From contig JANMKN010000219.1 of assembly GCA_031372065.1 (NCBI GenBank), forward strand, positions 1 through 31,491: a DNA stretch of 31,491 bases. The letters run 5' to 3'. Source of the stretch: Abditibacteriaceae bacterium. GTDB lineage: Bacteria > Armatimonadota > Abditibacteriia > Abditibacteriales > Abditibacteriaceae. The notes under the pieces were generated by a model, which worked only from the letters and a program-made list of their open reading frames with translations, was not told where the DNA came from and ran no database searches. The translations under genes and the position numbers were made by a program. Position 1 is the first letter of the stretch. Each line of letters starts with the position of its first letter. Below are positions 3,845 through 31,454 of this stretch, piece after piece.

Positions 3845-4996
3845 ATGCGATTTTTGATTGGTTTTTTGCTGTTGATAACGGCTTTTGCAGGCGCCAACGA
3901 TGCAGTTGTCACCGGCATCGGCGGGCGCTGGAACTTTATGGATGGAGAGCATTCCCAAGTGCAAATGGTGCGCGAAAAGGTGCAAATAACCATTGGTGAT
4001 GGCGAATTATATCGTGTGGTTGCCGACTTTGTTTTTCGCAATCGCGGGCCGCGCACTGTTGTCACTATGGGCTTTCCCGAAAGCGGCGGCGGCGATATTG
4101 ATTCGCTGCACTTGCGCCACAAAACCGCTTTCAAAAACTTTCAAAGTTGGGTGGATAATCGCAACGTGAGGCTGTGGCGTGCGCCTGCCCACACCACCGA
4201 AAACACTTACGAAGCGTTTTGGATCAAAAAAGTCGGCTTTGCCGCGCATCAAACGCGGCGCGTGCGCGTTTCGTATCAAGCGCCTTTGGGCGTTGCTGTT
4301 GGTGGGCCAAAGGCGGCTTCTTATGTTTTTACCGGCAAAAACTGGCTGGGTGAAGTGGAAGAAAGCGTGCTAATCGTAGATTTTCTGCGTCGCGGCACTT
4401 TTGCCGCCTCCGACGATTTAGCGCGTGACGAATCGGTGCGCAAAGCGCGTCGCGGCAATCATTTTGTGTATCGCTGGAATCATTGGCAAGCCAGCACAAC
4501 TTTCGATTTTAATTTCATGAAAACCGTGCCGGGTTGGTTACAAATTAGCGCTTGGAATATGGATTTGAACATCAACAACGGCCCGAAAACTTCCAAAACG
4601 CAGGGCGCCGATTTTCTGCCCGCCGCGCTTTTACGCGATGGCACAACACTAATTTCGCTGCGCAAAATGGCGGAAATTCTGTCGGTTCACGAGAGAATGA
4701 CGCTGGGCACGCCTGAAAAATATCTTATCTGGAACCGGCGCAGCAACGCCCTGAATTTGAACAGCGAAAGCCATAGTTTCGGCTTTTTGACGGGTCGAAA
4801 AACCATGCAGTTGGACGAAAAACAAAGCATCGTTTTGCCGATGGCGCCTTTGAAATTAACCTCGCGCAACGCGGGGCAAAGCGAAACTTATGTGCCCTTG
4901 CGCCCGCTTTTAAAGGTCTTGGGCGCCGACGCGAAAGTGGACGCCAAGGGGCGCGCTTTGAGAATTATGTGGCCGGTTTATACAGCGAAAAAATAA
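3845..4996 (+). CDS. Secreted DUF4424-like protein with C-terminal copper-amine-oxidase N-terminal (stalk)-like domain
   Basis: Signal peptide; VQMVREKVQI, FVFRN, MGFPE, YVFTGKNWLGEV motifs; C-terminal TLISLR...TYVPLRPLLKVLGA. Confidence 0.7.
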   Translation: MRFLIGFLLLITAFAGANDAVVTGIGGRWNFMDGEHSQVQMVREKVQITIGDGELYRVVADFVFRNRGPRTVVTMGFPESGGGDIDSLHLRHKTAFKNFQSWVDNRNVRLWRAPAHTTENTYEAFWIKKVGFAAHQTRRVRVSYQAPLGVAVGGPKAASYVFTGKNWLGEVEESVLIVDFLRRGTFAASDDLARDESVRKARRGNHFVYRWNHWQASTTFDFNFMKTVPGWLQISAWNMDLNINNGPKTSKTQGADFLPAALLRDGTTLISLRKMAEILSVHERMTLGTPEKYLIWNRRSNALNLNSESHSFGFLTGRKTMQLDEKQSIVLPMAPLKLTSRNAGQSETYVPLRPLLKVLGADAKVDAKGRALRIMWPVYTAKK

Positions 4997-27941: not shown

Positions 27942-28114
27942 CCTCGGCTAATTCGCGCTTTGGGTTTGCGCCTATCGGCCAAGGGCAAAAGTAAGATGCT
28001 GATTATCGGGGCTGCGATGAGAAAACTGTTGCATATTGCTTTCGGCGTTCTTAAAGGAGGGCCGAAAAATAAAAAAGACAAGAGGTCGTTTTACCCCTTG
28101 TCAACATAGTCTCT
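27942..28114 (+). mobile_element. IS110-family (IS621-like) remnant: transposase C-terminus plus right end
   Basis: Start-less frame 27933-28109 reads ...LIRALGLRLSAKGKSKMLIIGAAMRKLLHIAFGVLK..., typical of an IS110 transposase C-terminus. It ends in TTGTCAACATAGTCTCT (28098-28114), fused to a half attC. Confidence 0.8.
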
Positions 28115-28122
28115 TGTTGGGC
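28113..28122 (-). repeat. Half attC (R'' box and part of spacer only)
   Basis: CTTGTTGGGC is identical to the end of attC 28418-28427; the rest is replaced by the IS110-like right end. Confidence 0.75.
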
Positions 28123-28329
28123 AGCAAGTCGAAGCATTCGAGATTGAGCCGCCGCAGTGAGCGAACCCACGAGCTTGAAGTTGCGGCTGAACCACGTGAG
28201 CGAGTTGACGCGGTTCCACATCCAGCTACGCCACCAACTCAGCGTTGAACAAGCTCAGCAAAGCTGAGCTTGACCTTCAATTTCTGCTCAAGACGCTCAG
28301 CGAGCAGAAGCCGCGCGCTTGCGGGCCAA
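28116..28329 (-). other. ORF-less, highly structured gene cassette
   Basis: Ends are complementary (11/13) like other cassettes; carries the cassette leader GCGCGCGGCTT; no self-contained ORF in the track; several hairpins. Confidence 0.7.
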
Positions 28330-28427
28330 CGACCAAGCTCACCCGCCGCCGGAAGCGCAGAGACCGCAGCGAGGAACGAGCGTAGGGAACGAAGCTGTAG
28401 GCGGTCGGGTGCAGCGCCTTGTTGGGC
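28324..28427 (-). repeat. attC site (104 bp)
   Basis: Minus strand GCCCAAC aaggc GCTGCAC ... GTGAGC ttggtc GTTGGCC. Confidence 0.93.
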
Positions 28428-28476
28428 CGCTTGTCTGACAATTTTGATTGCCATTGTATTGCTTACAGGGCGCGTC

Positions 28477-28722
28477 TTACGAATTACCCCAGGGTGGAAG
28501 CAGAAATACTAAAACAAACCCAACCAAAACTAAAATAACGCTAACCATTATCTCGACTTGATTGCCAGATGTTTTCCCACTTCGTTTTTTCAAATTGCTG
28601 TAGATAAAGAGACCAAGCACCAGCAAAACAGCCAAAACGAGATCTGCGGAAAACCAGACCTCGCTCCAAGTCATCAAACCCTGATTTGGAAAGAAAAATG
28701 GAAAGTGGAATGGGCTGAACAT
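28477..28722 (-). CDS. Cassette gene: small two-TM membrane protein
   Basis: 81 aa, two hydrophobic helices, fills the cassette between two attC sites. Confidence 0.7.
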   Translation of the reverse strand: MFSPFHFPFFFPNQGLMTWSEVWFSADLVLAVLLVLGLFIYSNLKKRSGKTSGNQVEIMVSVILVLVGFVLVFLLPPWGNS

Positions 28723-28745
28723 GATTGTGCTTGACCTAAGTTAAA

Positions 28746-28774
28746 AGTATCGCTACCAACAACGTATCGCGCAA
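28746..28774 (-). promoter_or_regulatory. Cassette-borne sigma70-like promoter
   Basis: TTGCGC (28774-28769)-17 bp-GATACT (28751-28746). Confidence 0.6.
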
Positions 28775-28777
28775 GCG

Positions 28778-28881
28778 GCCCAACGACCAAGCTCACCCGC
28801 CGCCGGAAGCGCAGAGACCGCAGCGAGGAACGAGCGTAGGGAACGAAGCTGTAGGCGGTCGGGTGCAGCGCCTTGTTGGGC
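28778..28881 (-). repeat. attC site (104 bp)
   Basis: GCCCAAC...GTTGGGC; 28780-28881 is identical to 28326-28427. Confidence 0.93.
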
Positions 28882-28908
28882 TGCTTGTAGAAATGTTTTG
28901 GAAGCGGT

Positions 28909-29451
28909 TTAACCCGCAGCAAAATCAACGTGCCATTTCACGACCTTCCATCGCCCCGCCTGTTTCTTGAGTTCAATGCTGCTTTGGGTAAGAGAATTCT
29001 CCCATTTAGAGTCACTCCCCACGAGACCCCATCCCTGAACGCGCCACTGAATGCGTTCATCGCTAAGAGACTTAAATTTAGTCAAGCTAATTCTTTCAAC
29101 ATCAACGCGGCGCTTTGGGTCGTGTGAGTGCCGCCACTTGCTTTCTGTCCAAGCTGGATACACATTGAAACCTTCACGACGAAAAGCGGTGATGAGTGCA
29201 GCCGGTGTGACTTCACGACGCGATTCGTCAAAAGCCTCTATGAAGATGGGGGATGTGCGTTTTCCTGATTTGCGAGCTTCGCGCATCTCGTAACGGTAAT
29301 GGGAACTGGAACTACGGTAAAAGAGATAGTAGAAAGCATCTCTGCATGCTGCACGTTTCTCCCTGAGAGTAAGACGTGCGGATTTCTTTTCCGCAACTGA
29401 TGTCGCTGTGGAGAATGATAAAAGAATTGCACAAATGCAAAATAATCTCAT
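28909..29451 (-). CDS. Cassette gene: secreted basic hypothetical protein (180 aa)
   Basis: MRLFCICAILLSFSTATSVA signal peptide. ATG 29469 is an alternative start; the TTG at 29511 lies in the attC core. Confidence 0.78.
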   Translation of the reverse strand: MRLFCICAILLSFSTATSVAEKKSARLTLREKRAACRDAFYYLFYRSSSSHYRYEMREARKSGKRTSPIFIEAFDESRREVTPAALITAFRREGFNVYPAWTESKWRHSHDPKRRVDVERISLTKFKSLSDERIQWRVQGWGLVGSDSKWENSLTQSSIELKKQAGRWKVVKWHVDFAAG

Positions 29452-29505
29452 GCTTCCCAATTGTATCATTATTCCTTTTGCTCCGCATCCAAGCCGCGCG
29501 CAGCC

Positions 29506-29613
29506 GCCCAACGACCAAGCTCACCCGCCGCCGGAAGCCGGAGCGCAGTGGAGCGAGGCACGAGCGGAACGGAGCGCAGGCTGTAGGCGGTCGGGTGCAG
29601 CGCCTTGTTCTGT
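29506..29613 (-). repeat. attC site (108 bp), non-canonical R'' ACAGAAC
   Basis: ACAGAAC aaggc GCTGCAC ... GTGAGC ttggtc GTTGGGC. Confidence 0.92.
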
Positions 29614-29624
29614 CGCTTGTTGAC

Positions 29625-30431
29625 TCATTTCGGCAACTCGTCTGCCGAGCCTAGAAAGGCTGGCCCACAATCCGGCGGCAAGCAACTTACGATGTAATCT
29701 ACTATCACGGAAGCGTTTCCTCTCGCGAGTGTTTTGCCATTGTCATCCTGAACTTCGTATTGTGATTCAGCGCCATTCGACACATCATCTGGACGGCTGG
29801 CAGGAATGATAAACGGGCAAGGAACCAAAAATGGATAGCCAGTGCATTGACTAAAACCCAAACGGTTCATGCTGGTAAAAGGCATTAGCTTTCCCAAAAT
29901 GGGGTGAGAATGAGCCGTCTGCACCACTGATGCGAGAACTGAGAAGAATTTATCTTCAACTACTGTTTTGTGAAGTCTCTCCCACTTTTGTTCGACATAA
30001 ACTGCTGCGCCAGCAACGTAAGCATCGGCGGCTTCGGAAAACTCTACAAACGGAAATTGTTGTTTCAATTGACGTGGCGCGGTGTTTTGCCCTATCCAAG
30101 CATCCAACAGTTTCGCCGCCTCTTCCGGCGAGGAAGTATTGACGTGTCCGAGACAGACGCCCCTGTCCCAAAAGTCCAAGAGAAAAAGCCGTTCCATTAC
30201 AGCCACTGTCGGCTGTGACATTCGGGTTTCACTTCGCACAAAAGCCCAACAGCTACATTGTCCATCCGTTGTTGTATCTTTACCATCAACTTTTAGCGTG
30301 GAGCCTATTGCATCAAGGTGAAGTTGCAGCAGTTTTCGCAGACTGCCTTGTTCTTTCAAATCAGGATAGCGCAGATTTACGAACTTATTGTTGCTTGTTA
30401 AATCGTGGTATTCATCTAATGAATCGCTCAT
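29625..30431 (-). CDS. Cassette gene: DUF6193-like protein (268 aa)
   Basis: YPDLKEQGSL, ERLFLLDFWDRGV, LMPFTSMNRLGFSQCTGYPF, LPPDCGPA resemble the DUF6193 family (recognised from memory); ATG 30431 with AAGGGTG RBS. Confidence 0.75.
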   Translation of the reverse strand: MSDSLDEYHDLTSNNKFVNLRYPDLKEQGSLRKLLQLHLDAIGSTLKVDGKDTTTDGQCSCWAFVRSETRMSQPTVAVMERLFLLDFWDRGVCLGHVNTSSPEEAAKLLDAWIGQNTAPRQLKQQFPFVEFSEAADAYVAGAAVYVEQKWERLHKTVVEDKFFSVLASVVQTAHSHPILGKLMPFTSMNRLGFSQCTGYPFLVPCPFIIPASRPDDVSNGAESQYEVQDDNGKTLARGNASVIVDYIVSCLPPDCGPAFLGSADELPK

Positions 30432-30447
30432 TTTGTCACCCTTGCTT

Positions 30448-30476
30448 AGTCTCGCTTTCAGCAAAGCCGCGCGCAA
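30448..30476 (-). promoter_or_regulatory. Cassette-borne sigma70-like promoter
   Basis: TTGCGC (30476-30471)-17 bp-GAGACT (30453-30448). Confidence 0.55.
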
Positions 30477-30479
30477 GCG

Positions 30480-30552
30480 ACAGAACGACTGAGTTCACCC
30501 GCCCCGCAAGGAGCCTGCGACTGTAGGGGTCGGGTGCAACGATTTGTTAGGC
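30480..30552 (-). repeat. attC site, short form (73 bp)
   Basis: GCCTAAC aaatc GTTGCAC ccgacccc...ggggcgg GTGAAC tcagtc GTTCTGT. Confidence 0.92.
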
Positions 30553-30741
30553 GGCGGTTGATGCCTTTTTCCTTCTGTTCACGTAGGACACATAGGCGTG
30601 CTTTGGCACCCAGTCTCGCCACGCATCATAAAAAACTTTTTCATGTTCAATGATAGTCGCGCGTTCGTCCTCTTTCAGAAGGTGGTCAACTGATGAGTTA
30701 TGATGAATTTGTTCAAGCACGTCCTCGCTTATTGCCCTCAC
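30547..30741 (-). CDS. Cassette gene: small hypothetical protein (64 aa)
   Basis: AGGAGG-5 bp-GTG start; stop TAA lies within the R'' box (GCCTAAC), a typical cassette layout. Confidence 0.65.
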   Translation of the reverse strand: MRAISEDVLEQIHHNSSVDHLLKEDERATIIEHEKVFYDAWRDWVPKHAYVSYVNRRKKASTAA

Positions 30742-30770
30742 TTCCGCCTCCTGCCAAGTTTTGCGACGCC

Positions 30771-30872
30771 GCCTAACGATTAAGCTCACCCGCCGCCGGA
30801 AGCGCCAGAGTGAAGCGAGGAACGAGCGAAACGGCGGCGCTGTAGGCGGTCGGGTGCAGCGCCTTGTTAGCC
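30771..30872 (-). repeat. attC site (102 bp)
   Basis: GGCTAAC aaggc GCTGCAC ... GTGAGC ttaatc GTTAGGC. Confidence 0.93.
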
Positions 30873-30916
30873 TGCTGTTGGGGACTTGCAGATGCGGCTT
30901 TGATGTTGAGCCGCTA

Positions 30917-31309
30917 TCATTTTGATGCTCTGCCCTCTTCCTGCGAAACGATGAACTCGTCTAATTCATCCCATCGTTTATTATTCTCTGGCACATTGGC
31001 ATTATCAAACTTCCAGCAACGGCTGAAAGTATCGCCAAGTTCCTTATTTCCACCTCGAACGAGTGCAGCCGTTTTCTCGAAGTATTCGTCAAAGTGGCAT
31101 TCCAAAATATGCTCCAAGATGCAAGTCGCAATGGCTGTTCTTACATCCTCGTTTTCACTTGAACCCCACTTGACCACCAGCGGCCAAATTACCTCCGGCG
31201 CGTGTTCACAATGACCATGTTCACCCAATGCGATGACCGCTTGCCAACGTGTGTGTTCGTCTGGCGAACCTATCTCCTTATCTATTTTCTCCAAGTCAAG
31301 TGAGATCAT
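30917..31309 (-). CDS. Cassette gene: small acidic HEAT-repeat-like protein (130 aa), probably leaderless
   Basis: SPDEHTRWQAVIALGE and SENEDVRTAIA HEAT-like motifs; ATG 31309 lies 6 bp after a -10 box. Confidence 0.78.
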   Translation of the reverse strand: MISLDLEKIDKEIGSPDEHTRWQAVIALGEHGHCEHAPEVIWPLVVKWGSSENEDVRTAIATCILEHILECHFDEYFEKTAALVRGGNKELGDTFSRCWKFDNANVPENNKRWDELDEFIVSQEEGRASK

Positions 31310-31315
31310 ATTTTG

Positions 31316-31344
31316 AGTATGACACACAGCAAAGTATCGCGCAG
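31316..31344 (-). promoter_or_regulatory. Cassette-borne sigma70-like promoter with extended -10
   Basis: CTGCGC (31344-31339)-17 bp-CATACT (31321-31316), preceded by TGn. Confidence 0.62.
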
Positions 31345-31346
31345 CA

Positions 31347-31454
31347 GGCTAACGCCAAGCTCAGCCGCCGCCGCAGGTAGCGACCAAGCTAAAATTACCC
31401 GACACGCTTTAATTTGCCAGAGCTTCGGCGGTCGGTTGCAGCGCCTTGTTAGAC
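31347..31454 (-). repeat. attC site (108 bp), divergent central loop
   Basis: GTCTAAC aaggc GCTGCAA ccgaccgccg...cggcggcgg CTGAGC ttggc GTTAGCC. Confidence 0.9.

Follow-up and report, generated by a model that had tools for sequence, protein, structure and literature searches.

The integron and its cassettes

The window analysed here, a stretch of 31,491 nucleotides from an Abditibacteriaceae bacterium (contig JANMKN010000219.1 of assembly GCA_031372065.1), is contig C2 of a 6.1-Mb genome (G000), and its end carries part of an integron in which most cassettes begin with a shared, promoter-like leader. The array consists of 12 cassettes, all on the minus strand; the last six start inside the window, and six more lie on contig C351, the start of which is the same as the final 141 bases of the window. 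The integrase gene intI adjoins the array at C351:2964-3899, and its product scores 419 bits against TIGR02249, for which the cut-off is 265, such that the array is classed as a chromosomal integron. An attI-like site near C351:2648, a GTT with a cassette-type start and no upstream attC arm, is a candidate by position only. The first two cassettes past attI (C351:2110-2650) are similar non-coding units of 322 bp, and a broken intI-like fragment with two stops is found at C218:262-594 of the same genome.

Six sites in the window have the R''/R' boxes, L boxes, extrahelical bases and unpaired spacer of attC. The bottom-strand folds of the circular forms of five window cassettes are those of a canonical attC, with an internal loop of 4/5 nt and two single bulges that are separated by 6 nt. 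When cassettes are compared across genomes, the same cassettes are found at differing places in relatives. At all cassette 3' ends, a second YYAAC motif stands 8-9 bases before R'' (for example, at 28878-28895 of the window), with the consensus YYAAC-AGCRGCMY-AAC and often with the stop codon inside it. In the standard integron model, cassettes are promoterless and their expression is set by their distance from the promoter Pc, and self-promoted cassettes are exceptions.

A leader fused to R' across the family

Cassette starts were collected from 15 relatives, by fetching 70 stretches around attC matches and calling 184 sites with two-arm weight matrices. The high-scoring sites, with near-duplicates removed, give 160 non-redundant starts from 16 genomes. 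A leader of the form GTT-N8/9-GCGCGCRGCKT, called as a match of at least 7/11 to GCGCGCGGCTT, follows R' in 116 of these 160 starts, and its core begins 12 bases (73 starts) or 13 bases (31 starts) from the G of GTT. The leader is about 35 bases long and consists of three parts: an end-pairing repeat of 12-13 bp, the GC core GCGCGCRGCKT, and a right arm that is more variable and has TG-C/T-GATA at its end. In the window, the core is present in five of the six starts, as the original prediction had claimed, and the exception, at 30777, scores 6/11.

The genes behind the leader are unrelated, with 2 homologous pairs among 115 proteins. Within the family, 14 of 26 genomes have the attC type of the array, compared with 1 of 34 more distant genomes; the leader pattern occurs in 9 of 11 family genomes and, elsewhere in the phylum, in 1 of 110. 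Public records that bear clusters of the same attC arm are recorded under Abditibacteriaceae or Abditibacterium. Other taxa offer 55 loci with the same attC left arm, 18 of them without a callable right arm, and the leader is present at 1 of the remaining 37; a leader search of viral contigs gave no match. A held-out set was obtained by scanning metagenomes with a pattern that stops before any −10 box, which yielded at least 168 starts, at least 140 of them non-redundant and new, on contigs without taxonomy. The leader is a real, replicated and family-wide feature, and it represents a variant of integron cassette architecture.

The first part of the leader pairs with the end of its own cassette. 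In the window, starts are complementary to their own ends over 12, 11, 13, 7 (10/11), 13 and 5 bases. In 81 complete cassettes, the start agrees with the reverse complement of its own end at 6.8 of 9 positions (positions 4-12), versus 4.5 when the ends are swapped (at most 5.0 in 1000), and no pairing between the ends of these cassettes was found beyond position 13. In the folds of the five circular forms the repeat is an outer stem that lengthens attC, and the nTG of the −35 element proposed at the leader is the end of that stem. Per-cassette complementarity bears out the earlier claim that the hexamer overlaps the cassette-closing repeat, given that its first 2-3 bases lie inside it. Extended complementarity between cassette start and end is known from Vibrio; a published source for it was not found in the literature searched.

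An internal repeat of 15 nt is weakly seen in the leaders (lag-15 match 0.37). Near position 4801 of locus L061 (G013), the core unit is present as an exact 15-base tandem duplication ahead of TACAAT. Cyanobacterial cassette starts at L088, L089 and L149 have a CGATCGC-like word roughly where the GC core would stand, which we presume may be the common host palindrome HIP1.

−10 boxes, start codons and the TTGCGC hexamer

The original prediction described three cassettes with a hexamer placed 17 bp from a −10-like box, and these strings are present on the minus strand of the window: TTGCGC-17-GATACT (28774-28746), TTGCGC-17-GAGACT (30476-30448) and CTGCGC-17-CATACT (31344-31316). The last box does have the described TG extension and an ATG 6 nt later, and in a fourth cassette TGATACAAT (29468-29460) contains TACAAT, with the ATG 8 nt later (29451). 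Of these boxes, GAGACT fits TATAAT at 3/6 only, and the one at 29465 lies 32 bp, not 17, from its hexamer. The window alone is not significant, since a built-in sigma-70 scan finds 5 sites versus 2.5 expected, none of which is a cassette box; significance comes from the larger sets.

For these sets, a loose box was defined as A at the second and T at the sixth position with at least 4/6 matches, a strict box as TAnnnT with at least 5/6, and distances were counted from nnGCGC; the established sigma-70 consensus and rules for the extended −10 and MerR spacers served as reference. The 116 leaders of the genome set have 14 loose boxes at 17 bp (3.4 expected), 9 at 18 bp, 11 at 19 bp, 11 at 32 bp and 12 at 33 bp. 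Among the matches listed, the 140 held-out starts have 29 boxes on the sense strand at 17 bp (4.2 expected, maximum 11 in 1000 shuffles) and 27 at 19 bp, with 2 at 18 bp and 4 at 16 bp. The enrichment of A at −11 and T at −7 at 17 bp, on which the original prediction had staked itself, is therefore seen in both sets (14/116, and 29/140 among the matches listed). In the pooled 259 leaders, the box is at 17 bp in 46 and at 19 bp in 41, with weaker peaks at 25-36 bp. Counting on from the end of the right arm, a −10 arises in two registers, as (G/C)ATA(C/A)T at 17 bp or as TAnAAT at 19 bp. The peak at 32-34 bp in the genome set fades in the held-out data (9, 6 and 2, among the matches listed). A −10 that floats freely relative to the core was ruled out by the peaks at 17 and 19 bp. 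Of the earlier proposal, the stereotyped leader fused to R' holds across the family, and the single −35/17-bp design is not supported in its original form, given the equal peak at 19 bp and the weaker ones at 25-36 bp.

Strict boxes are found in 65 of 131 leaders, versus 21 on the antisense strand and 19.5 in shuffles (maximum 36), and in 56 of 140 held-out starts among the matches listed, versus 21 antisense and 20.9 shuffled (maximum 35). In other taxa they occur at 1 of 37 starts, with 3.7 expected. The solo cassettes of G000 were located with a matrix that had been trained on relatives and took no account of the −10; a strict box is present in 8 of these 12, versus 2.0. Two homologous cassette pairs retain TG-n-TACAAT, or exchange TATAAT for TATACT, with neighbouring bases changed. 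The boxes have A at −11 and T at −7, lie on the sense strand and are suitably placed, and so match sigma-70 promoters by sequence; at about three times the control frequency, strict boxes also make the cassettes appear other than promoterless.

The proposal of leaderless geometry gains support from the larger sets. Of 96 coding cassettes, 15 have a strict box 5-8 nt ahead of their first ATG, versus 1.9 in shuffles and 44 of 2349 host genes. When an ATG lies 4-10 nt past a strict box, it is in frame in 29 cases and out of frame in 2 in the genome set, and in the held-out set 27 are in frame and 0 out, among the matches listed.

The −35 element is less clear. TTG is tied to the 17-bp class, as proposed, and occurs in 21 of 44 pooled leaders of that class versus 2 of 39 of the 19-bp class; conversely, T at −12 is found in 10 of 46 leaders at 17 bp versus 37 of 41 at 19 bp. 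This trade-off resembles compensation between promoter elements. In the held-out set, 15 of 35 TTG starts versus 14 of 105 others have the box at 17 bp, and TTG avoids 19 bp, among the matches listed. These figures and the sharp 17-bp peak in two sets (the held-out one among the matches listed) would suit a fixed −35/17/−10 promoter in essentially all cassettes, with nnGCGC as its working −35. That model is improbable, however, because just 46 of 259 leaders have the box at 17 bp and 41 have it at 19 bp, where the hexamer reads GCGCGC, because TTG is present in only 61 of 259 leaders and is confounded with leader length, and because the distance to the distal −10 differs between homologous cassettes. 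For TTGCGC as a −35 in the TTG/17-bp subclass, the chances appear about even. Host promoters likewise look −10-centred: a fraction of 0.42 of their 422 strict boxes have G at −14, and TTG is weak ahead of these boxes at 16-17 bp (19 and 22, versus 6-19 elsewhere). CarD was not found in the host, in which the sole PF02559 match is a 1228-aa frame, probably Mfd, and a search for the primary sigma factor identified none.

We favour the reading that cassettes of the family mostly begin with the shared leader and that, in about half of them, the −10 is probably the cassette's own housekeeping-type promoter, often giving a leaderless mRNA. The −10 with its TG/G(−14) extension would drive initiation, and TTGCGC would act as a weak −35 aid in the 17-bp subclass only, whose −12 base is poor; in the 19-bp subclass the −10 is strong and no −35 would be needed. 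The remaining cassettes may use a −10 further down (25-36 bp, in some cases probably brought with the gene), or may depend on a Shine-Dalgarno (SD) sequence and read-through only. Cassettes would then be expressed independently of Pc, wherever IntI inserts them.

Several observations count against this reading. There is no strict −10 in 66 of 131 leaders, about half, and the core is retained without any −10 in 24 of 116 starts. The choice of reading frame partly favours the in-frame ATG test, and start codons were set by a simple longest-open-reading-frame rule. The presence of TTG nearly coincides with a leader one base longer: long leaders lacking TTG have the box at 17 bp in 6 of 18 cases versus 18 of 180, and the few short leaders with TTG in 3 of 9 (p 0.06). 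Compensation by TG is weak (7/22 versus 14/24, p 0.085), and TTGCGC shows no enrichment at host promoters: among 422, none has it at 16 bp and one has it at 17 bp. The TTG/17-bp pattern could also arise from template subtypes, or from a constant spacing of 33-35 bases to the crossover. In addition, counts across kin overstate significance; the leaders share ancestry, so the sharp peaks and the trade-offs may partly be inherited template subtypes.

The core is also retained in 3 of 3 SD-only cassettes, and its persistence without a −10 calls for another reason or a neutral one. The leader might extend attC for recombination or structure, or might have been passed on neutrally from a founder cassette, with −10-like boxes as inactive passengers and expression via Pc and read-through. 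The cassette-specific complementarity of start and end fits this account, as do the over-representation of GCGCGC, the third most over-represented hexamer of the host, and the TATAAT-like boxes that solo cassettes also have upstream of their attI-like sites. The strand asymmetry, the in-frame ATGs 6-8 nt past the box and the boxes at other distances are left unexplained by it, and composition shuffles are far exceeded, such that we consider this account unlikely. For the GC core by itself, inheritance of a scaffold is the simplest reading, and recombination or operator roles are possible.

There is similarly little to recommend an operator, in which core and right arm would form a dyad (GCGCGCRGC-N3-GCTGCGTGC) for a host regulator acting in the manner of MerR, with the cassettes co-regulated. 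MerR-type promoters have a 19-bp spacer, which the 19-bp box peak would match; complementarity of the arms peaks at one register (Watson-Crick 0.39 versus 0.26 shuffled, maximum 0.29), and the host has three genes with MerR domains. The arms, however, do not covary (arm-swap p 0.16-0.6), the right arm is far less conserved than the left, 8-9 pairs form in just 15 of 131 leaders, and MerR genes match in 12 of 14 control genomes too. A hairpin or dyad as a maintained structure was rejected on the failed covariation.

If the −10 does serve as the cassette's own promoter, as we favour, new genes may be joined to a ready-made scaffold that holds attC and promoter across the crossover, with the join at or near the transcription start. 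The leaders make this a tentative suggestion, rather doubtful at present. Captured genes would then be born self-expressing, often leaderless, and the leader would be a footprint of the cassette-making process. A copy of one toxin-antitoxin cassette has no leader, and the sequence that the two share begins just a few bases ahead of the TATAAT. This suggests that the −10 is in some cases brought along by the gene, although the copy may be a decayed cassette. Pairs of cassette and donor gene were set aside as mostly array ends or possibly decayed cassettes, for which reason the direction of capture could not be set. At about 22800-23520 of contig C168 in G000, a MazEF-like pair homologous to a cassette of G017 has at its flanks a direct repeat some 30 bases long and, in addition, a possibly decayed attC arm.

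Window features, solo cassettes and known systems

The features at the end of the window are collected in Table 1. PADLOC gave no match for the five window genes.

Table 1. Cassette features in the window, listed in the order of the array (positions are those of the window)
Feature	Position	Strand	Remarks
attC 1 (R'' to R')	31347..31454	-	closes cassette located on C351; 141-base overlap
Leader 1	31316..31353	-	GTT, 12-bp cassette-closing repeat, CTGCGC 31344-31339, core GCGCGATACTT
Leader 1, −10	31321-31316	-	TG-extended CATACT, 17 bp spacing, TG at −15/−14; ATG 6 nt on (31309)
Cassette gene 1, 130 aa	30917..31309	-	predicted leaderless; weak HEAT-repeat match under Pfam cut-off
attC 2	30771..30872	-	next cassette start 30777, degenerate core (6/11), AGGAGG SD ahead of GTG 30741
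Cassette gene 2, 64 aa	30547..30741	-	SD-led; without family match
attC 3	30480..30552	-	short, 73 bp
Leader 3	30448..30486	-	13-bp repeat, TTGCGC 30476-30471, core GCGCGCGGCTT
Leader 3, −10		-	weak GAGACT (3/6), 17 bp spacing; ATG 16 nt on
Cassette gene 3, 268 aa	29625..30431	-	DUF6193 (PF19692, E 5e-16)
attC 4	29506..29613	-	two extrahelical bases, separated by 6 nt, in the bottom-strand fold
Leader 4	29460..29512	-	CTGCGC 29503-29498, core, without box at 17 bp
Leader 4, −10	29465-29460	-	TG-extended TACAAT at 32 bp; ATG 8 nt on (29451)
Cassette gene 4, 180 aa	28909..29451	-	without Pfam or PADLOC match
attC 5	28778..28881	-	
Leader 5	28746..28784	-	13-bp repeat, TTGCGC 28774-28769, core GCGCGATACGT
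Leader 5, −10	28751-28746	-	GATACT, 17 bp spacing; ATG 23 nt on
Cassette gene 5, 81 aa	28477..28722	-	hydrophobic; Pfam matches all under cut-off
attC 6	28324..28427	-	
Last cassette, gene-less	28116..28330	-	full core 28318-28308, no −10
R'' of last cassette joined to IS110-family right end	28103..28118	-	insertion into its attC suggested by complete G003 copy
IS110-family transposase C-terminal remnant, 49 aa	27960..28109	+	tblastn 50% over 68 aa, E 5e-13, versus G003 transposase

The array ends in the window at an insertion sequence (IS) of the IS110 family. A complete copy in G003 (L019:872-2138) splits an attC left arm and encodes a transposase with PF01548 and PF02371, which places it in the IS110 family; the window holds only the right end and the 49-aa remnant, which has no Pfam match. 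IS110-family elements target the attC of this bacterial family within its left arm, at an AG core, and a second type of end is found in the right arm (C109, C211, L045 and L056). Abutted IS110 ends would be predicted to form a junction promoter with TTG(T/C)CA and a 17-bp spacing. A short site at array ends, considered as a mini-attC, turned out to be the IS110 end.

The 16-base IS110 end has 16 copies in the genome at no more than 1 mismatch, mostly closing solo cassettes, of which 12 were found in G000. A solo unit runs, in order, from an attI-like site through leader, gene, R'' and IS110 right end to a hairpin with a T run, with no intI nearby. One-cassette units were noted on contigs C53, C55, C125, C168, C211, C228, C277, C317, C326, C356, C365, C369 and C402 of G000. 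The 640-base unit on C228, including its attI-like arm, is absent at the matching locus of G002, and the empty-site search was clear for 1 of 3 solo loci. On C125, C277, C365 and C369, several of the attI-like sites of solo cassettes have, on their upstream side, short tandem repeats and divergent genes from unknown families that recur.

The integron resembles sedentary chromosomal ones, such as the Vibrio cholerae repeat (VCR) arrays, and the clusters of attC sites or single attC sites lacking integrases (CALIN and SALIN). It shares with them IntI, a candidate attI-like site, attC-bounded one-gene cassettes in the same orientation, a conserved attC sequence and dispersed cassettes without an integrase. 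Unlike in those systems, sequence conservation here extends beyond R' over about 30 bases of the cassette, often up to a −10. In the literature searched, which included few subscription papers and no supplements, a promoter leader at R' shared by a whole lineage was not found, nor, as judged by title and the start of the abstract, was an integron study in Abditibacteriaceae. If the promoter reading is true, array order would matter less and a cassette inserted off the platform would be of immediate use, in keeping with the 12 solo cassettes. A rigid leader on hundreds of unrelated genes would also give a handle on cassette formation, in that junctions of scaffold and gene become mappable; cassette formation is listed as an outstanding question in PMC8618304.

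Insertion of IS110-superfamily elements at fixed attC positions is described for the IS1111-attC group, ISKpn4 and ISPst6 (PMC11187229), and the IS110-family end likewise sits in attC here. Cassettes off the platform reportedly depend on a nearby resident promoter for their expression (10.1101/2022.09.11.507474), unlike the solo cassettes here, which would bring their own. Vibrionaceae and Treponema have gene-less promoter cassettes that free arrays from Pc (10.1101/2023.11.21.568050); as described there, these are separate and non-coding, with transcription start sites away from the cassette 5' end, unlike the leaders here. Cassette 21 of Vibrio DAT722 has a sigma-70-type promoter that bridges attC, and its −35 sequence recurs in other junctions (PMC2945992). 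That −35 lies in the attC of the upstream cassette and, according to the same text, the −10 is unique among 116 cassettes, whereas here the cassette itself contains both elements, and about half of the cassettes have the −10. Cassette-borne promoters are known singly, from cmlA, qacE/qacE101, ereA, qnrVC1 and toxin-antitoxin cassettes (PMC8876359). The likeness to these is a promoter within the cassette and position-independent expression, here predicted from sequence. The promoters covered there are gene-specific and have longer 5' untranslated regions, whereas in Abditibacteriaceae one leader stands by the crossover ahead of hundreds of unrelated genes, often in leaderless geometry.

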